A DNA stretch of 41,059 nt from an uncultured Lentisphaerota bacterium. GTDB lineage: Bacteria > Verrucomicrobiota > Kiritimatiellia > CAIQIC01 > JAGNIJ01. The stretch spans positions 1 through 41,059 of the forward strand of contig CALMZY010000218.1 of the NCBI GenBank assembly GCA_937870865.1. Reading direction: 5' to 3'. Each line of letters starts with the position of its first letter. Position 1 is the stretch's first letter. Of the stretch, positions 5,504-38,573 are shown in pieces. Made by a program: the position numbers and the translations under genes. The notes beneath the pieces are model-generated. The model was not told where the DNA came from. It searched no databases and worked only from the letters and a program-made list of their open reading frames with translations.

Positions 5504-5535
5504 GCCTCTGACTTCTGATTTCTGACCGCTGACCT

Positions 5536-6633
5536 CTAGTATTTCCGTCCGCCGACGCCCTTCGTGCCGGCGGTGATGGCTTTGGCCTTCTCGTGCGGAC
5601 GCAGGGCGCGGACGGCCGCGCCGGCGCGCCACATCTCGGAGTCGCGGATGGCGCCCAGCTCCTTCGCCACGCGCTCCTGGTAGCCCTTCGCGCCGCAGAC
5701 CTTGATCACGCGCTCAGCTTCCTTGCCGGTCGAGACGCGCTTGTACAGCTCGTTGAACACGGGCAGGACGGCCTTCTTGAACTTCGGGCTCCAGTCCAAC
5801 GCGCCGCGCTGGGCCGTCGCCGAGCAGTTCGAGAACATCCAGTCCATGCCGTTCTCGTCCACCAGCCGGATCAGGCTCTGGGTCAGTTCCTCGACCGTCT
5901 CGTTGAACGCTTCGCTCGGGGTGTGCCCGTGCTTGCGGAGCGTCTCGTACTGGGCCTCCATCGTGCCCGCGAGGCAGCCCATCAGCACGCCACGCTCGCC
6001 GGTCAGGTCGCTGTTCGTCTCGTGCGGGAACGTCGTCGGGAACAGGTAGCCCGAGCCGATCCCGATGCCGAGGGCGAGACAGCGGTTCTTCGCGTTTCCG
6101 GTTGCGTCCTGCGCCACCGCGAAACTGGAGTTGATGCCGACGCCCGACAGGAAGTTACGGCGAACGGACGTGCCCGAGCCCTTCGGCGCGACCATGATCA
6201 CATCGACCCACTTCGGAGGAACGACGCCGCTCTTATCCTTATAGGTGATGGAGAAGCCGTGGCTGAAGTAGAGCGCGTCGCCCTTCTTCAGGTTCTTCTT
6301 CACGATGGGCCAGACCGCACGCTGGGCCGCGTCGGACACGAGCATCTGGATGACCGTGCCCTTCTTGACCGCGGTCGGGATATCGAACAGCGTTTTGCCG
6401 GGCACCCAGCCGTCGGCCTTCGCGCGATCCCAGTCGCGCTTGAACTCCGGCGCCTGGCCGATGATGACCTTGAAGCCGTTGTCCTTCAGGTTGAGCGCCT
6501 GCGCGGGGCCCTGGACGCCGTAGCCGAGAATCGCGATCGTCTCACCCTTCAGCACCTTGTGCGCCTTGGAGAGCGGGAACTCTTTGCGGGTGATGACTTT
6601 TTCCTTCACGCCGCCGAAATCAATGATGGCCAT
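5536..6633 (-). CDS. ilvC: Ketol-acid reductoisomerase
   Basis: 365 aa with an N-terminal Rossmann motif (ILGYGVQGPAQALNLKDNG) and typical KARI blocks (FSHGF, APKGSG, LTGERGVLMG). AAGGAGA precedes the ATG. Confidence 0.95.
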   Translation of the reverse strand: MAIIDFGGVKEKVITRKEFPLSKAHKVLKGETIAILGYGVQGPAQALNLKDNGFKVIIGQAPEFKRDWDRAKADGWVPGKTLFDIPTAVKKGTVIQMLVSDAAQRAVWPIVKKNLKKGDALYFSHGFSITYKDKSGVVPPKWVDVIMVAPKGSGTSVRRNFLSGVGINSSFAVAQDATGNAKNRCLALGIGIGSGYLFPTTFPHETNSDLTGERGVLMGCLAGTMEAQYETLRKHGHTPSEAFNETVEELTQSLIRLVDENGMDWMFSNCSATAQRGALDWSPKFKKAVLPVFNELYKRVSTGKEAERVIKVCGAKGYQERVAKELGAIRDSEMWRAGAAVRALRPHEKAKAITAGTKGVGGRKY

Positions 6634-11405: not shown

Positions 11406-11410
11406 TCCAC

Positions 11411-11490
11411 TCGTAATCGTAATCATAATCGTAATCCTGGCCCGCCGAGGTAGTTCTCGATTACGATTACGAGAACGATTACGATTACGA
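11411..11490. repeat. Tandem-word palindrome H1 (hexamer TCGTAA x4 / TTACGA x5)
   Basis: The left arm is TCGTAA TCGTAA TCATAA TCGTAA. The right arm is TTACGA TTACGA GAACGA TTACGA TTACGA. It fills the 90-bp gap between stop 11405 and the rsmI ATG at 11496. Confidence 0.75.
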
Positions 11491-11495
11491 GCGAT

Positions 11496-12218
11496 ATGAA
11501 TCCCGGCCTTTACATCGTCGGCACGCCGATCGGCAATCTCGGCGACATGACGCTTCGCGCAATCGAGACGCTGAAGTCCGCGAACCTGATCGTCGCAGAG
11601 GACACGCGCCACACGCGCCATCTGCTCGATCGCTACGAGATCGGCACGCCCACGATCAGCTGTCACAAGTTCAACGAAGCGTCGCGCGTCGACCTCGTGC
11701 TTGGAAAGATCCGCGACGGACAGGCGGTCGCCATGGTCACCGACGCGGGCATGCCGGCGGTCTCGGACCCCGGCTCGCGGGTCGTCGCCGCGTGCCATGA
11801 CGCGGGAGTTGCGGTGACCGTAATCCCGGGACCGTCGTCGGTCACCGCCGCCGTCGCGTTGAGTGGTTTCGGCGGCGCCGGGTTCTTCTTCGAAGGCTTT
11901 CTTTCCCACAAGTCCGCCGCGCGCGAGCGCCGGCTGGCGGAGCTGGCCGATTGCGAAGCCCCGGTGGTCCTTTTCGAGTCGCCGTACCGCCTGCTCAAGC
12001 TGCTGGGCGAAATCGAAAAGATTCTCGGCGCGCGGCCGGTGTTCGTCGCGAGAGAAATGACAAAGCATTTCGAGGAGCATCTGCGGGGCCCCGCGGCGGA
12101 GATCGCGGCGAAGTTCGGGGGGCGGACGGTGAAGGGCGAATTGGTCGTGGTGATCGCGCCGGGGCAGAGTCCAAGAGAGTCCAAAGTCCAAGGTCTAAAG
12201 TCCCAAGTGGTCCTCTGA
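11496..12218 (+). CDS. rsmI: 16S rRNA (cytidine1402-2'-O)-methyltransferase
   Basis: N-terminus LYIVGTPIGNLGDMTLRAIETLKSANLIVAEDTRHT plus GMPAVSDPG, typical of the RsmI/tetrapyrrole-methylase fold. The last ~16 codons are encoded by the left arm of palindrome H2. Confidence 0.9.
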   Translation: MNPGLYIVGTPIGNLGDMTLRAIETLKSANLIVAEDTRHTRHLLDRYEIGTPTISCHKFNEASRVDLVLGKIRDGQAVAMVTDAGMPAVSDPGSRVVAACHDAGVAVTVIPGPSSVTAAVALSGFGGAGFFFEGFLSHKSAARERRLAELADCEAPVVLFESPYRLLKLLGEIEKILGARPVFVAREMTKHFEEHLRGPAAEIAAKFGGRTVKGELVVVIAPGQSPRESKVQGLKSQVVL

Positions 12219-12260
12219 CGTTGGACCTTGGACTTTAGACTTTGGACTCTCTTGGACTTC
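12167..12260. repeat. Tandem-word palindrome H2 (heptamer AGTCCAA family)
   Basis: The left arm is GAGTCCAA GAGAGTCCAA AGTCCAA GGTCTAA AGTCCCA. The right arm is TTGGACC TTGGACT TTAGACT TTGGACT CTCTTGGACT. The rsmI stop (12216-12218) lies in the loop. Confidence 0.75.
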
Positions 12261-12291
12261 CCCATTAACCGGGCCGCGATTGACAGGTATA

Positions 12292-12804
12292 ATGCCCGGT
12301 GTTAGCGTGAACTCCATCTTGGAGCTCCGCCGACTGGTGAAACGAACAACGGCATTTTTGTTGGTGCTTATGACCGGTACCCTCGTGGGCGTGGCGGATT
12401 ATTCGATCGCAGCGACGCAGAACCGCGCGCGGATTCTGCGCGTGGAGCACGTCGTGGACGCGGGCGCGGCGGGCGCGGAAAACTCCAGCCTCATGGCCTC
12501 CCGTCTTCCGAAGTTTTCCGACGCAACGACCTCCTCGCCCCGCGAGCTGTTCACCATTTACTGGGAGCCCGCCGCCGCCGTGCCCGCCGGCACGCTGGTG
12601 ACGTTCGAGTATCTCCAGGAGGCCTCGGCGCATGTTCAATTTCTGTCCATGAAGTACGAATGGCCGGTGGACGGCGAGGAAAAAGCCCTCTTTGCGATTG
12701 ATGTGGGCGGCGCCCGGCCGGCGGGTCGGGTCACCGCCTGGCGCGCGCGGGTGGTTTATCGCGGCCGCCTCCTTGCGGAAAACCGGTCGGAAACATGGAG
12801 ATAA
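12292..12804 (+). CDS. Hypothetical secreted protein (first gene of the STAS/PP2C operon)
   Basis: The ORF has an N-terminal hydrophobic signal-like segment (KRTTAFLLVLMTGTLVGVA) and overlaps the next gene by 10 nt. The start is uncertain: TTG 12280, ATG 12292 or GTG 12337. Confidence 0.5.
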   Translation: MPGVSVNSILELRRLVKRTTAFLLVLMTGTLVGVADYSIAATQNRARILRVEHVVDAGAAGAENSSLMASRLPKFSDATTSSPRELFTIYWEPAAAVPAGTLVTFEYLQEASAHVQFLSMKYEWPVDGEEKALFAIDVGGARPAGRVTAWRARVVYRGRLLAENRSETWR

Positions 12805-15597: not shown

Positions 15598-16778
15598 TGG
15601 CCCCCGCCAAGAGAGACTACTACGAGGTGCTCGGCATCCCGCGCGAGGCGTCGGCGGACGACCTGAAAAAGGCGTACCGCAAACTCGCGCTCCAGTACCA
15701 CCCGGACAAAAACCCCGGCAACGTGGAGGCAGAGGAGAAGTTCAAGGAGATCTCCGAGGCGTACGAGGTCCTGAGCGACCCCCAGAAGAAGGCGATGTAT
15801 GACCAATACGGTCACCAGGCCTTCCGCCCCGGCGCGGGCGCGGGCGCCGGGTTCGGCGGCTTCGGAATCGATCTCGAAGAAGCGCTCCGCACGTTCATGG
15901 GCGCGTTCGGCGGCGGCGGAAGCATCTTCGACAATTTCTTCGGCGGCGGCGAACCGTCGCGGGATTCCTCGATGCGCGGCGCGGATCTTCGATTCGACCT
16001 CGAAATCGAATTCGAGGAGGCGATTTTCGGTTCCCAGCGGGACGTGACCCTGCCGATCATGGACGAGTGCGAGGCCTGCAAGGGAACGGGAGCCGAGCCG
16101 GGCAGCAAGAAGGAGAAATGCCGCCGCTGCGGCGGCCGCGGCATGATGATCAGCTCGAACGGATTTTTCCAGGTCCGCCAGACCTGCCCGTCCTGCGGCG
16201 GCACCGGCGAGACCATCGCCAACCCCTGCCGCACGTGCCGCGGCGAGGGCCGCGTACGCAGCAAACGGACGCTGAACCTGAAAATTCCGGCCGGCGTCGA
16301 GACCGGTTCGCGCCTCCGGCTGGCCGGCAAAGGGGAAGGCGGCTCGCGCGGCGGGCCGGCGGGCGACCTGTACGTGGTGCTTCACGTCAAACCGCACCCG
16401 CTGTTTCAGCGCAAGGACGAGGACATCTTCATCGAGATGCCCGTGCCGTTCCACGTCGCCGCGCTCGGCGGCGAGATCAATGTTCCGACCATCCACGGCT
16501 ACACGGCCCTGAAGATCCCGCCCGGCACCGAGAGCGGCACCGTCTTCCGGCTCCGCGGCAAGGGCCTGGCCGGCGTACACGGCTTCCGCAACGGCGACCA
16601 GCACGTCCGCGTCAGCGTCGAAGTCCCGCCGAGACTGAACGGCGACCAGCGCGACGCGCTCCGCCGGTTCGCGGAAGTCTGCACCGACGCCCATCATCCG
16701 CAGCAGAGGAAGGTTCTCGACGCGGCGGAAGAGTTCTACACGCACAAGAAGGCGATGGAAGAGGGACGGGAGAAATGA
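15597..16778 (+). CDS. dnaJ: Molecular chaperone DnaJ
   Basis: ATG at 15597 overlaps the grpE TGA. It has a J-domain ([13 protein letters not shown]...YHPDKNPG), a G/F-rich region, and four CxxCxGxG zinc-finger repeats. The 606-aa ORF-table entry is an upstream artefact extension. Confidence 0.95.
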
Positions 16779-16912
16779 CGAATGTCTAATGACGAATGAC
16801 GAAAGAATGACTCAATGTCGAATGTCGAAAAAGGCACCAATGGACCCGCGGGAGCTTCGTCATTCGGTCATTCCGACATTCATTCGTCATTGGGGTTTGG
16901 TCATTCGTCATT
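16774..16912. repeat. Tandem-word palindrome H3 (heptamer AATGACG family)
   Basis: The left arm is AATGACG AATGTCT AATGACG AATGACG ...CAATGTCG AATGTCG (16774-16827). The right arm holds CGTCATT-type words (16856-16912). It spans from the dnaJ stop to the probable rsmE start. Confidence 0.75.
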
Positions 16913-22185: not shown

Positions 22186-22255
22186 GAACGCCGGACGTCG
22201 AACGCTGAACGCCGAACTTCGAAGTTCGGCGTTGGACGTTGGGCGTTCGGCGTTT
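22186..22255. repeat. Tandem-word palindrome H4 (5 + 5 heptamers, GAACGCC family)
   Basis: GAACGCC GGACGTC GAACGCT GAACGCC GAACTTC | GAAGTTC GGCGTTG GACGTTG GGCGTTC GGCGTTT. There is no loop (centre CTTCGAAG). It begins 4 nt after the permease stop. Confidence 0.8.
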
Positions 22256-22278: not shown

Positions 22279-23883
22279 ATGAAACCTCTGAACCGGGAAC
22301 AGCTTTCGTGGGTTGACGAAACCCTTTCCTCCCTCTCGCTCGAGCAGCGCGTCGCCCAGCTTCTCCAGCCGAAGATCGACCGCCCTTCCGACGTGGACTT
22401 TCTCCTGAAAACAATGGAGAAGATCCCGTTCGGCGGGCTGTTTGTCTGGGGCGCGCCGCGCGAGGCGCACCTCGAGCGTATCGGCCGTCTGCAGGCCGCC
22501 AGCCGCATCCCGATCGTCGTCGCGGCCGACCTTGAAAACGGCCCCGGCTACATTGTCCACGACACCGCCCGCTTCCCGGACACGCTCGCCGTGGGCGCCG
22601 CCGACAGCGAGGAACTGGCCTATACCATGGGCAAAGCCGCCGCGCTCGACGGCCGCGCGTCGGGTATTCATTGGACGTTTGCGCCCGTCGTGGATGTCAA
22701 CGTCAACCCCGACAATCCCATCGCGAACACCCGCTGCCTCGGCGACAACCCGGAGCGGATTGGAAAGCTCGCCGCCGCCATCATTCGCGGCATGCAGGAC
22801 CACGGTCTCGCTGCCTGCGCAAAGCACTTCCCCGGCGACGGCCTCGACGATCTCGACCAGCACATCTCGACCTCGGTCAACCCGCTCTCTCTGGAAGAGT
22901 GGAAAACCGTTTCGGGCCGCGCATTCAACTCCGCATTCGCCGCCGGGGCGTGGAGCACAATGGTCGGTCACATCGCCTTCCCGGCCTGGGACCCGGAAAA
23001 AGACGGGCGAGGCGCCCTCCGGCCAGCGACCGTCAGCCGCCGCATTGTGACGGACCTTCTTCGCAAGGAGATGAAGTTCGGCGGGCTGGCCGTGACGGAC
23101 GACATGAACATGGGCGGCGTCGCCGGCTACATAAACCTGCGCGACCGGACGGTCGGCTGCATCAAGGCGGGCTGCGACATGTACCTCTTCCCGCCTATGC
23201 CGTACGCGTACGACACGCTCGTCGCCGCGGTCCGCTCCGGCGAGCTTTCCGAGGAGCGCGTGACGGACGCGGCGCGCCGCGTCCTCGAATTCAAGGCCCG
23301 GCTGAACCTGCACACGGGCCAGGTTGTCGGCCGAACGCCGTCCGCCGCCGAGGCGGCGGAGTTTGAAGACGCGGCCCAGCACATCGCGGAGCGCGCGCTC
23401 GTGTGCGCGCGCGACACGAACAAGCTTCTCCCCCTGCGCCTCCCGCCGGGCGCCCGGGTGCTGACGGTCACCCTGACGAACGACGGACTCGAATTGGCCG
23501 AAATCGACAAGGAACTGGCGGCGCGCGGATACCAGGTCACGCATATCGTGGCGGACAACTACGGGTGCGTGGATCGGTTCATCCGCGAGGTGGACGCCAT
23601 CTTCATCAACTTCATGTTCAAGGCGAACTGGGCCGTCGGATCGGTGCGCTCCATCGGCCCGCACAACCGGATGTACATGAACGGATTCTACATGGAACAC
23701 CCGCGGGTCGTCTTCACGTCGTTCGGCTCCCCCTACCACCTGCGGCAGTTCGGTTCGCTTCCGAACCTCCTCAACACGCATTCGTCCTCCCCCGGCAGCC
23801 AGCGCGCCGCCGTGGCCGCGTGGTTTGGGGAAATCCCGATCGCGGGCAAGAGCCCGGTGGGGAACCTTGAGCGAACTTTTTAG
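22279..23883 (+). CDS. Glycoside hydrolase family 3 protein (NagZ/beta-glucosidase-like N-domain)
   Basis: 534 aa with GH3 blocks (AADLENGPG, PVVDVN.NPDNPI, KHFPGDG, AVTDDMNMGG). Confidence 0.85.
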   Translation: MKPLNREQLSWVDETLSSLSLEQRVAQLLQPKIDRPSDVDFLLKTMEKIPFGGLFVWGAPREAHLERIGRLQAASRIPIVVAADLENGPGYIVHDTARFPDTLAVGAADSEELAYTMGKAAALDGRASGIHWTFAPVVDVNVNPDNPIANTRCLGDNPERIGKLAAAIIRGMQDHGLAACAKHFPGDGLDDLDQHISTSVNPLSLEEWKTVSGRAFNSAFAAGAWSTMVGHIAFPAWDPEKDGRGALRPATVSRRIVTDLLRKEMKFGGLAVTDDMNMGGVAGYINLRDRTVGCIKAGCDMYLFPPMPYAYDTLVAAVRSGELSEERVTDAARRVLEFKARLNLHTGQVVGRTPSAAEAAEFEDAAQHIAERALVCARDTNKLLPLRLPPGARVLTVTLTNDGLELAEIDKELAARGYQVTHIVADNYGCVDRFIREVDAIFINFMFKANWAVGSVRSIGPHNRMYMNGFYMEHPRVVFTSFGSPYHLRQFGSLPNLLNTHSSSPGSQRAAVAAWFGEIPIAGKSPVGNLERTF

Positions 23884-23929
23884 TCCAAAGTCCAAAGACC
23901 GTTCGACTTTGGACCTTGGACGTTGGACT
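23882..23929. repeat. Tandem-word palindrome H5 (AGTCCAA x2 / NTTGGAC x3)
   Basis: AGTCCAA AGTCCAA AG - loop ACCGTTCGA - C TTTGGAC CTTGGAC GTTGGAC. It starts inside the GH3 TAG stop and uses the same word family as H2. Confidence 0.7.
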
Positions 23930-31387: not shown

Positions 31388-32326
31388 TTACGGCTCAGCC
31401 GCCAGCTTGTTCACCATTCTCAGCACAACCCGCCCGACGGTGCCGAGGCTCTCCGCGCTGAGCTTGTCCATGCTGTCCGCCGGGGTGTGCCAGTAGTCGT
31501 TCCGGCCCGGCGCGCTGCCGAAGTGGAAGTCGATGATGTCGATGGCCGGAATGCCTGCGCTGAAGAAGGGATCGTGGTCGTCGCCGATCTGCAGGGGGGA
31601 CAGCATGAACTTGTCGCGGGTGCCATCCTCCCGCGCCGCATCGAACACCATGGAAATCAGCGCGGGCGTGCTGTTGCGCGGGAGGGTGACGGTTAGATCG
31701 CGGTCGCCGATCATATCCATCAGGATCATCGCCTTGACGTCCGCGGCCTGGCCGTTCTTGAGCATCTTCTTCGCCAGATACCGGCTGCCCTGCAAGCCAT
31801 CGAACACGCCGTAATGCTCCATGCATTCCTCGCCGTCGAAGAACACGAAGACCACCTCGAACGGGAGCTCCGGGCTTTTCGCCATCACGCGCGCGAGCTC
31901 GATCAGCGCGCCTGAACTGGAGGCGGAATCGTTCGCGCCTTCAAACCCGGGGATGCCCGACTTCGTGTCGTAGTGAGAGGCCAGGAGCACCCGCCCCTTT
32001 CCTCCTCCCGGCAGTCGCCCCATGACATTCCGGAAGACCGTCTCGCCCAGGGGACTCTGCGCCTTGAACTCGTCGATGGACGCCTCGACCCCCGCGGCCT
32101 GCAGGCGCTCGCACAGGTGTTTCGCCGCCGCTTCCGCGCCGGCCGTCGCGGAATCCCGTGGCCCCAGCGCCACAAGATCGCCCGCCTCCCGGAGCGCCCG
32201 CGCCCCGTCGAATGCCGCCGGGTCCAGCGGCGGACCCGACCGGGCAGGCTCCGCCGGCTTCTGCCGGCAGGCCGCCAGCAGAACAAGGCAAAAGGCAACT
32301 GCCCGGATCGTATTTTTTCCAAACAT
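31388..32326 (-). CDS. M28-family metallopeptidase lipoprotein (aminopeptidase/glutaminyl-cyclase-like)
   Basis: It has a lipoprotein signal (MFGKNTIRAVAFCLVLLAAC) and M28 blocks (LLASHYDTK, GANDSASSSGALIELAR, FVFFDGEE, MILMDMIGD, DDHDPF). The first ATG (32326) lies in the loop of repeat copy C. Confidence 0.8.
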   Translation of the reverse strand: MFGKNTIRAVAFCLVLLAACRQKPAEPARSGPPLDPAAFDGARALREAGDLVALGPRDSATAGAEAAAKHLCERLQAAGVEASIDEFKAQSPLGETVFRNVMGRLPGGGKGRVLLASHYDTKSGIPGFEGANDSASSSGALIELARVMAKSPELPFEVVFVFFDGEECMEHYGVFDGLQGSRYLAKKMLKNGQAADVKAMILMDMIGDRDLTVTLPRNSTPALISMVFDAAREDGTRDKFMLSPLQIGDDHDPFFSAGIPAIDIIDFHFGSAPGRNDYWHTPADSMDKLSAESLGTVGRVVLRMVNKLAAEP

Positions 32327-32366
32327 TGGAAAAATTCCGGCCTGTTTTTCCAATCCTTGGAAAAAC
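32314..32366. repeat. Dispersed double-hairpin repeat, copy C
   Basis: TTTTTTCCAAACATTGGAAAAATTCCGGCCTGTTTTTCCAATCCTTGGAAAAA, between the potD stop and the M28 gene start. Confidence 0.6.
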
Positions 32367-32380
32367 GGGCTGCGGCCGAC

Positions 32381-33409: not shown

Positions 33410-34176
33410 GATTTCTCCTCCGTCAGACGTTGACTGAACCATACCGCCGCGAACGTAACCAGGAGCAGGATCGTGGAAAGGGCGTTGATCAGCGGCGGAG
33501 AGCCGTGCTTGATCATGCTGTAGATCCGGATCGGCAGGGTCGTGGACCCGGGCCCGGCGACGAAGAACGTGATCACGAAATCGTCGAGGGAAAGCGTGAA
33601 GGCCAGGAGCGCGCCGGCCGCGATGCCCGGAAACAGCAGCGGCAGGAGCACGCGCGTGGCCGCCGTCCACCAGCTCGCGCCGAGATCCTGCGCGGCCTCG
33701 ATCACCGAGAAGTCGAAGTCCTGCAGCCGCGCGAGCACGACCATGGCCACGTAGCTGATGCAGAACGTGACATGCGCGAGGAAGATCGTGAAGAGCCCGA
33801 GCTGGATCTTCATCGCGACAAACAGCAGGAGCAGGCTCATGCCCATCAGGATCTCGGGCACCACGAGCGGCGTGTAGATCAGGACGTAGTGGACCTTCTG
33901 GATGCGGCTCGCGAACCGGTGGAGGGCGAAGGCCGCCGTGGTGCCCAGCACGGCGGAAACGACGGTCGCCCCCACCGCGATGATCAGCGTGTTCTCCAGG
34001 GCGCGCCAGATGTCCCGCTCGTGCAGGAGGCGCTTGTACCAGACCAGGGAGAAGCCCTCCCACGTCCCGCCGAAGCGCGACGCATTGAACGAGTTGGCCA
34101 CGAGCACAATGATCGGGAGGTAGAAGAACACGAGGACGAGGATCAGGGTGATGAGCGGAAGACGGCTGTGCTTCAT
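33406..34176 (-). CDS. potC: Spermidine/putrescine ABC transporter permease
   Basis: 256 aa with six TM spans and an EAA loop (IEAAQDLGASWWTAATRVLLPLLFPG). ATGA overlaps on both sides. Confidence 0.9.
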   Translation of the reverse strand: MKHSRLPLITLILVLVFFYLPIIVLVANSFNASRFGGTWEGFSLVWYKRLLHERDIWRALENTLIIAVGATVVSAVLGTTAAFALHRFASRIQKVHYVLIYTPLVVPEILMGMSLLLLFVAMKIQLGLFTIFLAHVTFCISYVAMVVLARLQDFDFSVIEAAQDLGASWWTAATRVLLPLLFPGIAAGALLAFTLSLDDFVITFFVAGPGSTTLPIRIYSMIKHGSPPLINALSTILLLVTFAAVWFSQRLTEEKS

Positions 34177-35054
34177 GCGTCCTCCTCGATCAGCGGATCC
34201 TCCTCGATGCCCTTCCTCTTCTGCAGAACCAGCACCGCGAGAAGCGGCGCGAGAACCGCGAGCGTGAGAAACGCGGAGAGCCCGCTGGCGTGCGGCAGGT
34301 TGCGGTCCACGAAGGTACGCTGGGCGATCTTGTTCCCGATCATCTCGCTGTGCGGCCCGCCGACGATGTCCGGGATCACGTAGGAGCCCAGCGCCGGGAT
34401 GAACACGACGAGGATGGCGGTGAGCAGGCCGCGCCGGATGCCGGGCAGGAAAATGCTGAAGAACGCGCGGAGTTGATGCGCGCCGAGGTCGCGCGCGGCC
34501 TCGATCAGGCGGAAGTCGAACTTCTCCGCCGCGGCGTAAATGGGAAGGATCGCGAAAGGCAGGTAGGTGTACACCATCACCAGCAGGATCGCGCCGGCAT
34601 TATACAGCAGGGAGGTGTCCGGCGCGACGAGGTGCAGCCCGACCAGCGCGTGCTTCAGCGGCCCCTCAGGATGCAGGAGAACCTTCCACGCGAAGATGCG
34701 GATGAGGAAGCACGTCCAGAACGGAATGATCACCAGGAGAAGGAGCTTCTGCTGCCAGGTCTTGCTGAGACGCGACATGCAGTAGCCCGTCGGCACGGCG
34801 AGGAGGATGCAGGTCGCGGTCGTCGCGATGCTCAACCAGACGGTCCGCCAGACGATCGACGGGTAATTCGGATTGCCGAGGCTCTTCAGCGTGTCCAGCG
34901 TCCACCCCGTCCCGATGCCCCCGTACGGATCGGACGGCTTGAAGGTGATGATGAAAACGATCAGCGTCGGGATGACGAACAGGACGCACAACCACGTGAA
35001 GGACGGAGACGTGATCAGCCACTCCCACAAACGTTTCTGCTGGACCTTGTTCAT
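34173..35054 (-). CDS. potB: Spermidine/putrescine ABC transporter permease
   Basis: 293 aa with an EAA loop (IEAARDLGAHQLRAFFSIFLPGIRRG). TAATG overlap with potA. Confidence 0.9.
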   Translation of the reverse strand: MNKVQQKRLWEWLITSPSFTWLCVLFVIPTLIVFIITFKPSDPYGGIGTGWTLDTLKSLGNPNYPSIVWRTVWLSIATTATCILLAVPTGYCMSRLSKTWQQKLLLLVIIPFWTCFLIRIFAWKVLLHPEGPLKHALVGLHLVAPDTSLLYNAGAILLVMVYTYLPFAILPIYAAAEKFDFRLIEAARDLGAHQLRAFFSIFLPGIRRGLLTAILVVFIPALGSYVIPDIVGGPHSEMIGNKIAQRTFVDRNLPHASGLSAFLTLAVLAPLLAVLVLQKRKGIEEDPLIEEDA

Positions 35055-37536: not shown

Positions 37537-38442
37537 TTAGAGACTGTCCGAAAGGCCCAGGATGACCAGCAGGCGGTCGAGGTCGTCGTTCGAATAGTAG
37601 TCGATCTCAACCGTGCCTTTGACTTTCTTGCCGTTCGCAAGCGTCTTGCACGGGGAAATCCGAACGCTGGTGCCGAAGTGCTGGTGCATTTGGTCGGACA
37701 GATGCTTGAGGTGCGCCTCCGGGATATCCGATTTTTCCGCGCGCGGCTTCTTGGCACCTTTCAGCAGGCGGTGCACGATGTGCTCCACCGTGCGGACGGA
37801 CATCCCCTCTTCCACCGCCCGGACCGCGAGCAGCTCCTGCTCCTTCGGAATCTCCAGCCCGAGAATCGCCTTTGCGTGGCCCGGCGTCAGCTGTTTCTCC
37901 GCCACGAACCGCTTCACCTTGTCGGGAAGATCCAGCAACCGCAACGCGTTGGCCACCGTTGCGCGCGCCTTGCCAACCCGCTGGGAAATCTGCTCCTGGG
38001 TCATCTCAAATTTGTCGGCGAGAAGGCGATAGCCCTCGGCTTCCTCGATGAGGTTCAGGTCTTCGCGCTGAAGGTTCTCGATCAGGGCGAGTTCCAGGGC
38101 CTCGCGATCGGACACTTCCATGAGGATCACGGGAACCTGCCGGAGTTCCGCCGCCTGCGCGGCCCGCAGGCGGCGCTCGCCCGCGATCAGCTCGTACTTG
38201 TCCTCGACCCGCCGCACCAGGAGCGGCTCCAGGATGCCGCGTTCGCGAACGGAAAGGGCGAGCTCCTCGAGCGCTTCCGCGGCGATAGTCTTCCGCGGCT
38301 GCCACGGGCTCTTGTGAACCTTCTCGATGGGAACCTGGACGATCCCGCCCTTCGCCTCGGCAACCGGAGCTTCCGCCGGCGGCGTCGCATCCTTGATCAG
38401 CGCACCCAGCCCGCGGCCCAGACCTATGTGTTTTGCACCCAT
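37537..38442 (-). CDS. parB: ParB/Spo0J chromosome partitioning protein
   Basis: Contains GLGRGLGALI, the ParB box LIAGERRLRAA, and an HTH (TQEQISQRVGKARATVANALRLL). No parA lies upstream in this window. Confidence 0.9.
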   Translation of the reverse strand: MGAKHIGLGRGLGALIKDATPPAEAPVAEAKGGIVQVPIEKVHKSPWQPRKTIAAEALEELALSVRERGILEPLLVRRVEDKYELIAGERRLRAAQAAELRQVPVILMEVSDREALELALIENLQREDLNLIEEAEGYRLLADKFEMTQEQISQRVGKARATVANALRLLDLPDKVKRFVAEKQLTPGHAKAILGLEIPKEQELLAVRAVEEGMSVRTVEHIVHRLLKGAKKPRAEKSDIPEAHLKHLSDQMHQHFGTSVRISPCKTLANGKKVKGTVEIDYYSNDDLDRLLVILGLSDSL

Positions 38443-38498: not shown

Positions 38499-38573
38499 GA
38501 CGCTTGACGCTGGACACTTGAAACCTGGGGCGCGTCAACGAAGCCCCCCAGTTTCAAGCGTCACGTTTCCAGT
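38499..38573. repeat. Tandem-word palindrome H6 (heptamer GACGCTT family)
   Basis: The left arm is GACGCTT GACGCTG GACACTT GAAACCT GGGG. The reverse complement of the right arm reads GAAACGT GACGCTT GAAACTG GGGGG. It is followed by the hairpin TTTCCAG-TAT-CTGGAAA (38566-38584). Confidence 0.65.

Follow-up and report, generated by a model that had tools for sequence, protein, structure and literature searches.

The 41-kb stretch of DNA analysed here (the window, that is, positions 1–41,059 of contig CALMZY010000218.1 of an uncultured Lentisphaerota bacterium; 62% G+C) carries long imperfect palindromes whose arms are themselves tandem arrays of about 2–8 units of 7 nt (6 nt at one locus). In the order of genes assigned with Pfam, these elements (H1–H5) are arranged as CarboxypepD_reg, H1, TP_methylase, H2 and, further on, dnaJ, H3, rsmE; a further part of the window comprises genes for a solute-binding protein and two ABC permeases, H4, a GH3 gene, H5, and an Exo_endo_phos gene. 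H4 (22186–22255) consists of five GAACGCC heptads in the left arm and five GGCGTTC heptads in the right arm around the centre AACTTCGAAGTT, and is located between an ABC permease gene (stop codon 22180–22182) and the GH3 gene (start at 22279), as a previous sequence-only reading of this DNA had placed it.

Element and array calls refer to the whole window, and inverted pairs were called by pairing the arrays detected by Tandem Repeats Finder (TRF), which tolerates imperfect arrays. Arrays of period 7, or of period 6 at H1, were detected on both arms of H1–H5, all of which are convergent array pairs, and each of the eight longest inverted repeats of the window (I1–I8) is an arm of H1–H4. Self-identity within the arms is 0.50–0.92 at lag 7 and 0.85–0.90 at lag 6 in H1, as compared to about 0.1–0.3 at lags off the period. 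The shared architecture proposed earlier, tandem 6- to 7-nt words followed by their complements, is thus borne out, as is the statement that the 7-nt period is not of coding origin.

Like H4, the other four palindromes are listed without strand. H1 (11410–11491) is composed of hexamers, TCGTAA in 4.3 copies and CGATTA in 5.5 copies with a gap of 21 nt between the arrays, and takes up the interval from the stop (11405) of the gene encoding a 1231-aa CarboxypepD_reg protein to the TP_methylase start (11496). H2 (12167–12260) is an AGTCCAA palindrome of about 5+5 heptads; TRF counted 4.4–4.6 copies per arm at both H2 and H4. H3 (16774–16912), flanked by dnaJ and rsmE, comprises about 7+7 interrupted AATGACG heptads with a CGAA box every 7 nt and a gap of about 25 nt between the arrays. 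H5 (23882–23929), between the GH3 and Exo_endo_phos genes, is a short palindrome of 2.3+3.4 heptads. The words had been said to differ between loci, which is correct except that H2 and H5 are built from one and the same word, AGTCCAA.

The elements had also been described as adjoining stop codons of plus-strand genes. This applies to H1, H3, H4 and H5, at distances of 0–5 nt: H1 and H4 follow the stop codon by 5 nt and 3 nt, respectively, and the first heptad overlaps the stop codon of dnaJ at H3 (aaTGAcg) and that of the GH3 gene at H5 (tTAGtcc, TAG). It does not apply to H2, where the TP_methylase open reading frame (ORF; 11496–12218) runs through the left arm to a stop codon in the loop (12216–12218), so that the last ~17 residues of the protein are encoded by the left arm (12167–12218). 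The spacer to the next start is nearly filled, with a distance behind the last heptad of 5 nt for H1, 23 nt for H4 and, to an ATG, about 9 nt for H5. Immediately 3' of H2, a promoter-like site, TTAACC-17-TATAAT (10/12), is found at 12265–12293 (+); the segment ccccattaaccggg..gattgacaggtat(a/g)at is conserved in two related genomes, L001 and L127.

A sixth locus, H6 (38499–38573; no strand assigned), is a doubtful member of the group, whose left side has three GACGCTT heptads and whose right side has about one; TRF reported an array on its left arm only. It lies not at the 3' end of a gene but where parB (minus strand) and a HAD hydrolase gene (plus strand) diverge, and parB (37537–38442, minus strand) is directly downstream of this hairpin with its partial heptads. 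Nor do the six loci constitute the full inventory: a one-armed array at 5507–5537 (minus strand), overlooked previously, consists of 4.4 copies of TCTGACT, i.e. AGTCAGA-type words that are purine-rich on the minus strand, and begins directly past the stop of ilvC, a minus-strand gene at 5536–6633.

Free energies computed for the folded RNAs, with z-scores relative to dinucleotide shuffles, were –36.7 kcal/mol for H1 (z –5.5), –66.3 kcal/mol for H2 (z –9.9), –57.8 kcal/mol for H3 (z –5.2), –53.3 kcal/mol for H4 (z –8.4), –20.9 kcal/mol for H5 (z –3.4) and –34.0 kcal/mol for H6 (z –3.3), in keeping with the imperfect hairpins described earlier. Pairing of the H4 arms is flexible in register, as had been noticed: left heptad 3 matches its in-register partner at 4/7 positions and the neighbours of that partner at 5–6/7, and the structure paired at a register of +7 nt still reaches –45.7 kcal/mol, as compared to –50.0 kcal/mol in register. 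None of the elements is followed by a U-tract, again as described, and their 3' flanks are devoid of T-runs. In a scan with a terminator consensus over 11–25 kb, terminator-like sites were not more numerous than expected from shuffles and none coincided with the elements; together with the missing U-tract, this argues against intrinsic (Rho-independent) terminators. Integron attC sites, CRISPR, parS and Chi-like sites were set aside on the basis of architecture and context. Searches against Rfam at gathering thresholds gave no match at the elements. The sole match in the window is a thiamine pyrophosphate (TPP) riboswitch (RF00059; 1646–1751, plus strand; 71.4 bits, gathering threshold 54.3) just 5' of a plus-strand ORF starting at 1761. 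An imperfect tandem repeat of period 15, CGCGAGAAACGCGAG, occurs in 2.9 copies at 34234–34275, around the start of a minus-strand ORF of 293 aa (34173–35054).

Element turnover at fixed gene junctions

The relatives of the window, as identified by their GH3 genes, are metagenome-assembled genomes (MAGs) of the Planctomycetes–Verrucomicrobia–Chlamydiae (PVC) group labelled Lentisphaerota, Kiritimatiellae or Verrucomicrobiota, and orthologous elements occur in MAGs from different projects. In the independent ENA assembly L263, which is 99.64% identical to the window over 3.3 kb, H4 is present in identical form (5+5); since the two assemblies differ by 12 single-nucleotide polymorphisms elsewhere, the arrays are not an assembly artefact. 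The closest relative, L001, shares 92.5% nucleotide identity with the window overall, as compared to 47% across H4 and 52% across H5. Conversely, L002 is 80% identical overall and 91% identical across H4, which in this case is part of a locally conserved tract.

At the permease–GH3 junction, GAACGCC heptads were found in the window and L263 (5+5), in L002 (5+4, i.e., exactly one heptad fewer in the right arm) and, in diverged form, in L129 (3+5). The same junction contains unrelated sequence in L001, L127, L130, L131 and L264, and the H4 site of L001 and L127 folds no better than its shuffles (z –0.1 and 0.1). A second type of palindrome, TTTTTCCAAnnnTTGGAAAAA, is present in the window in two tandem copies (32314–32370) between the minus-strand genes for a Peptidase_M28 protein and a solute-binding protein; its TTCCAA...TTGGAA motif also fills the permease–GH3 spacer of relatives that lack H4 (L131:9867–9920, L264:95–150 and L130:8618–8648). 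It may represent an operator or another family of dispersed palindromes.

The GH3–Exo_endo_phos junction is occupied by AGTCCAA heptads in the window (2+3) and in L002 (4+5; 4.4 and 5.7 copies), by an unrelated hairpin built from 9-mer words in L001 (z –4.9), and in L129 by a palindrome of octamer words (L129:6806–6892), the left arm of which lengthens the GH3 ORF by nine codons; L127, L130 and L131 have no element at this position. The dnaJ–rsmE junction carries AATGACG heptads in the window (about 7+7) and in L001 (3+3) and an octamer palindrome in L002, whereas the spacer of L127 and L131 is just 3–15 nt long. In several relatives, the genes overlap at the positions of H3 and H5. Inspection of orthologous regions, as advised in the sequence-only reading, thus revealed word turnover as well as presence and absence at three junctions, while the architecture itself is missing at several of the relatives' junctions. 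Upstream of the GH3 gene of a more distant relative (64% identity), L003:2455–2675 contains AAATCCG/CGAAA heptads with a complementary TTTCG arm about 100 nt further on, which may be a long-loop version of the same palindromic-array architecture.

H2 is old, having an ortholog in L001 and, in a decayed AAATCCG form, in L127. Besides, the H2 sequence of the window and the element behind the GH3 gene of L002 agree at approximately 69 of 72 positions, as counted visually in the alignment, and have both the loop and the variant heptad GGTCTAA in common. Since these near-identical copies sit at non-orthologous loci, copies appear to spread or to convert between loci. Comparison of filled and empty junctions (window versus L127 and L131) did not reveal a target-site duplication, in flanks that are only about 75–80% identical.

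Conserved words, arm polarity and wider distribution

Scanning metagenomes with the pattern AAGTCCAA-N5-35-TTGGACYTTGGAC yielded at least 116 distinct AGTCCAA-type elements on contigs from soil, peat, sediment and freshwater, with G+C contents of 33–69%. Nearly all of them extend past the search pattern, following the scheme (N-GTCCAA)~4, AGTC, loop, GACT, (TTGGAC-N)~4. The loops have a median length of 20 nt and are unique in nearly all elements; a search for dispersed copies by loop similarity returned few and weak cases, namely the pairs L181/L187 and L209/L219, which have similar loops in unrelated flanks. Four units are the mode in each arm, counted in 54 and 70 of the 116 elements listed. 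Ends of ORFs, defined by a simple stop-to-stop rule, fall at positions –5 to +3 relative to the first heptad in 52 of 136 cases among the metagenomic elements; many of the metagenomic arrays lie away from 3' ends.

One of the carrier contigs, L146, is acidobacterial, as its GlnE protein is 82–87% identical to proteins of Pyrinomonadaceae. The word AGTCCAA is therefore common to at least two phyla, the window being of PVC origin. Palindromes of the AATGACG type, again with a CGAA box per 7 nt and a variable 3-nt spacer, were found in 12 contigs of a viral collection, and TCGTAAA arrays, a 7-nt version of the H1 word, in three unrelated contigs, among which that in L142 is palindromic. GAACGCC and GACGCTT were not found beyond orthologs; matches to the H4 word in viral contigs were simple hairpins only. 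This recurrence of AGTCCAA across phyla, and of AATGACG and TCGTAA(A) in unrelated contigs, speaks against the notion that structure rather than sequence is conserved.

Period 7 prevails in these surroundings: in 626 kb of metagenomic flanks, 381 arrays of period 7 were detected, whereas those of periods 6 and 8 numbered 29 and 38, respectively. Words other than the search word make up 138 of the 381, 49 of these 138 being in inverted pairs, and the copy number peaks at 4–4.5. Within viral contigs, the arm order of AGTCCAA was forward at 8 loci and reverse at 3 (about 4 versus 1 real arrays), numbers too small to decide on an orientation, and a scan of the viral collection with the bare 14-mer AGTCCAAAGTCCAA gave mostly single matches among the matches listed, which are uninformative, but brought to light contigs rich in direct arrays. 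In the IMG/VR contigs L039, L102, L114, L030, L054 and L050, direct arrays of heptamers are crowded, with many words, about 4.5 copies per array and as many as 15 arrays within 13 kb. L050 contains a TTTGGAC array of 28 copies, and several of the words resemble Shine-Dalgarno sequences (GAGGGGC, CACGGAGG).

If base pairing were what is conserved in the arms, paired positions should covary. In the 116 elements, the variable seventh position was complementary in 48% of the partner heptads, as compared to 44% expected from composition (within-element shuffle, P=0.29), and only 4 of 152 deviations from the core were compensated, which likewise contradicts conservation of structure instead of sequence. 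The arms do share a "flavour" irrespective of register: core variants were common to both arms in 14 cases versus 8.2 expected (P=0.026), and the overlap in N composition between the arms was reached by none of 2000 permutations. This fits common ancestry or a preference of the lineage, not maintenance of pairs. In elements oriented by a single flanking ORF, mismatches of the G:T type and of the A:C type numbered 50 and 44, respectively (P=0.6), and the two strands of 14 elements of the window lineage had equal folding energies, with 32 G:U pairs on the plus and 35 on the minus strand; H4 considered individually folds better on the sense strand (–51 kcal/mol) than on the other (–38.5 kcal/mol). 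With neither covariation nor G:U excess nor strand asymmetry, there is no signature of a selected sense-strand RNA structure. Judged from these sequence patterns, the complementarity of the arms is a by-product of one word being present in both orientations.

What is kept is a core with one or more free positions per heptad (GTCCAA+N, CGAA+N3) and a polarity of the arms. Inverted pairs other than the search seeds have a 5' arm rich in purines (A>T in 20 of 27, P=0.019; G>C in 21 of 26, P=0.0025), and so do 11 of 12 elements of the window lineage. Single arrays abutting a stop are purine-rich on the sense strand of the ORF in 12 cases versus 2, a count to which purine-rich stop codons may contribute by biasing the calling of ORF ends.

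Relation to known repeats and possible nature of the elements

The elements had been regarded as belonging to no described repeat class; however, intergenic heptanucleotide repeats have been documented (PMC4679880, PMC6344855, PMC4692102). According to Mrazek (2007), as summarized in PMC4679880, heptanucleotide repeats are the commonest long simple repeats in many prokaryotes, and polymerase slippage was proposed as their origin. The SPADE survey of Mori et al. (2019) found the heptamer to be the dominant period of non-coding, intergenic tandem repeats in many phyla (PMC6344855), and tandem heptamers are the top periodic repeat of prokaryotic intergenic DNA without an established function or origin (PMC6344855, PMC4692102). 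The GGGAATC repeats of Xanthomonas described by Rehm et al. (2015) favour four units; of the 186 arrays in each genome, about 70 form convergent pairs capable of stem-loop formation, the arrays are situated on average 28 nt past the upstream ORF with the next ORF much farther away, their length and sequence differ among close species, and a role has not been demonstrated (PMC4692102). The same paper mentions three tandem heptanucleotides of Calothrix. TAACTGA direct repeats are common to Beggiatoaceae, Cyanobacteria and Bacteroidetes (MacGregor 2015, PMC4679880). They occur in intergenic sets of 2–6 copies adjoining the boundaries of coding sequences, 169 sets being direct and one indirect, and cold-shock proteins, with one heptamer per monomer, were proposed as their binders (PMC4679880).

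With the Xanthomonas repeats, the elements described here share the intergenic 7-nt arrays, the preference for four units, the convergent pairs and the vicinity of the upstream ORF end. They differ in that Xanthomonas uses a single G-rich word per genome with G-quadruplex potential, whereas the PVC genome considered here contains at least five words, none of which has such potential, and in that palindromes are the norm in the latter, frequently with the stop codon inside the overlap. The roughly ten-fold excess of period 7 over periods 6 and 8 in the sampled contigs agrees with the surveys of Mrazek and of Mori et al., which deal with direct arrays; convergent architecture, arm polarity and shared vocabulary are not analysed there. 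Like TAACTGA, the words are common to distant phyla; unlike the elements of the window, the TAACTGA repeats are direct, lie mostly just 5' of start codons, and use other words. A literature search for the heptad words themselves found nothing relevant, and searches on small dispersed repeats of cyanobacteria yielded nothing of use.

The short tandemly repeated repetitive (STRR) heptamers of cyanobacteria are related intergenic heptamer repeats. Repetitive extragenic palindromic (REP) sequences and bacterial interspersed mosaic elements (BIMEs) of enterobacteria and pseudomonads are imperfect palindromes scattered over the 3' ends of genes and the interior of operons, as are the elements of the window. 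REPs are units of 20–40 nt with one conserved sequence, a GTAG-type head and no internal 7-nt period, and are associated with RAYT transposases, whereas the elements have different words, no common GTAG/GGAG-type head, and a 7-nt periodicity. As RNA, a REP can protect upstream mRNA, malE-malF being the standard example. In the DNA uptake sequences (DUS) of Neisseria and the uptake signal sequences (USS) of Haemophilus, a conserved word in inverted pairs forms hairpins downstream of genes, and complementarity likewise arises because the word is present in either orientation. In DUS/USS, however, each arm is a single word of 10–12 nt, one per species and usually with terminator features, as compared to about four tandem heptads per arm in the present case. 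The 7-nt period (with H1, at 6 nt, as an exception), the site at the ORF end, the number of about four units and the variation in unit number assign the elements to the described but unexplained class of convergent intergenic heptanucleotide repeats, from which they differ by the use of several words within a single genome, by being palindromes as a rule, and by the placement on the stop codon.

The elements are gained, lost and replaced at fixed gene junctions among close relatives, their unit number shifts by single heptads, at times in one arm alone, near-identical copies occur at non-orthologous loci, and what is kept in the arms is arrays of words from a vocabulary shared in part, the 5' arm being purine-rich, and not co-evolving base pairs. 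They are best read as the version of intergenic heptamer repeats present in this PVC lineage, in the form of convergent pairs of modules with typically about 4–5 units or about 30 nt per arm, and we tentatively propose (with a probability of roughly 45%) that they are dispersed, slippage-prone elements at the level of DNA with fast turnover, whose presence is tolerated in the space separating a stop codon from the following gene. Arrays would lengthen and shorten by replication slippage, and copies would spread or homogenise by transposition or gene conversion, whichever the route. They would survive solely in the narrow slot between the stop codon and the next ribosome-binding site. When transcribed, an element would have to form a U-tract-free stem with an energy between –20 and –66 kcal/mol, looping out the insertion and thereby keeping the stop codon and the next start near each other; the stem could act both as a barrier to 3' exonucleases and as a double-stranded substrate of RNase III at cistron boundaries. 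Any such effect at the RNA level would be a consequence of the element and not the target of selection.

Several observations do not fit this proposal. The mode of four units in both arms (54 and 70 of the 116 elements listed) differs from the monotonic length distribution expected from pure slippage and points to a ruler or to selection. The recurrence of words across phyla (AGTCCAA in PVC and Pyrinomonadaceae, AATGACG in the 12 viral-collection contigs) and the constant purine-rich 5' arm (A>T 20/27, G>C 21/26) indicate that sequence and orientation seem to matter, which a neutral or selfish element does not explain. H4 is 91% to about 97% identical between the window and L002 despite genomes of about 80% identity, although the adjacent 3' end of the permease gene is also 90–94% identical. 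In the ORFs scanned and the junctions compared, neither a transposase nor terminal inverted repeats flanked by a target-site duplication nor any other sign of mobility came to light. With unit number, polarity and cross-phylum vocabulary left unexplained, explanations in terms of RNA hairpins and of protein binding stay alive.

Selected RNA stem-loops, the idea raised in the sequence-only reading, would be stabilisers of 3' ends in the manner of REPs, sites of processing, or terminators lacking a U-tract, by which expression is made to differ between genes of an operon. They would account for the very stable hairpins, their position right after stop codons within and at the ends of operons, the clustering of ORF stops at the first heptad, and the pyrimidine-rich 3' arm. 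The better fold of the H4 sense strand would also agree, and the promoter-like site after H2 is consistent with a boundary between transcription units. We nevertheless consider this unlikely. Compensatory changes and register-specific complementarity are absent, the sense strand has no G:U excess, U-tracts are lacking, and the H4 site is unstructured in L001, the closest relative, and in L127. Moreover, several relatives have overlapping genes at the positions of H3 and H5, and H6 as well as many metagenomic arrays lie away from 3' ends.

Rather improbable in our view, the arrays might instead be binding sites for a protein, with one monomer per heptad and about 4–5 monomers polymerising per arm, for example a cold-shock-domain or OB-fold protein that occupies the single strand rich in pyrimidines, or a ribbon-helix-helix protein that occupies the duplex. 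The convergent layout would then produce a hairpin tunable by the protein or a nucleoprotein complex with symmetry. Tandem heptads of 7 bp, in direct as well as inverted orientation, are bound by the omega repressor of pSM19035, and the heptamer GTCTTTG/T, reportedly preferred by CspB, resembles the consensus GACTTTG of the right arm of H2. A conserved core with a free position in each heptad, recurrence of words across phyla, arms sharply peaked at four units, a fixed arm polarity and the missing covariation of base pairs are all features expected of such sites. CspB of Bacillus subtilis binds heptamer repeats with one protein per heptamer, as cited in PMC4679880. On the other hand, at least five words in one genome would require several specificities or a loose one, neither the window nor the relatives have a candidate protein gene in linkage with the elements, and the elements are freely gained and lost between close relatives. 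More doubtful still is the generalization that heptad arrays constitute a cis-code common to different phyla, in which each heptad binds one monomer, modules of about 4–5 heptads set the stoichiometry, and a tunable hairpin or complex forms at cistron boundaries; if true, the "prime-number periodicity" seen in the intergenic DNA of prokaryotes would have found its function.

Classical non-autonomous transposable elements, such as MITEs (miniature transposable elements with inverted repeats) or REP/BIME-like sequences mobilised in trans by a dedicated transposase, appear just as improbable as a protein-binding array. They would explain the near-identical copies, loop included, at two non-orthologous loci, the sharp boundaries of presence and absence at stop codons, the occupation of one junction by different elements in different relatives, and the metagenomic pairs with similar loops in unrelated flanks. 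However, loops are unique in nearly all of the at least 116 AGTCCAA elements, filled and empty sites lack a visible target-site duplication, a conserved GTAG-type head is missing, and no transposase domain was detected in the scanned ORFs of the 41-kb window or in the called genes of the relatives. An assembly or sequencing artefact, as which the break of L263 inside H5 might be taken because assemblies often end at repeats, is excluded by the identical H4 of that assembly, by orthologs in MAGs of different projects, and by more than 100 similar elements in unrelated metagenomes.

Implications for intergenic heptamer repeats

In practical terms, the elements extend or truncate ORFs, as observed for TP_methylase in the window and for GH3 in L129, break assemblies as in L263, and mislead the prediction of terminators and gene ends in such MAGs. 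Their value lies not in the novelty of the class but in the constraints they impose on the open question of intergenic heptamers: any explanation has to accommodate about four units per arm, the prevalence of purines in the 5' arm, a vocabulary shared in part across phyla (AGTCCAA in PVC and Acidobacteriota), and the absence of covariation. The latter argues against the default reading as RNA hairpins and directs attention to dynamics at the DNA level or to word-specific binding. The same junctions being empty, filled, or filled with different words among genomes of 75–99% identity, the lineage of the window provides a compact natural experiment.

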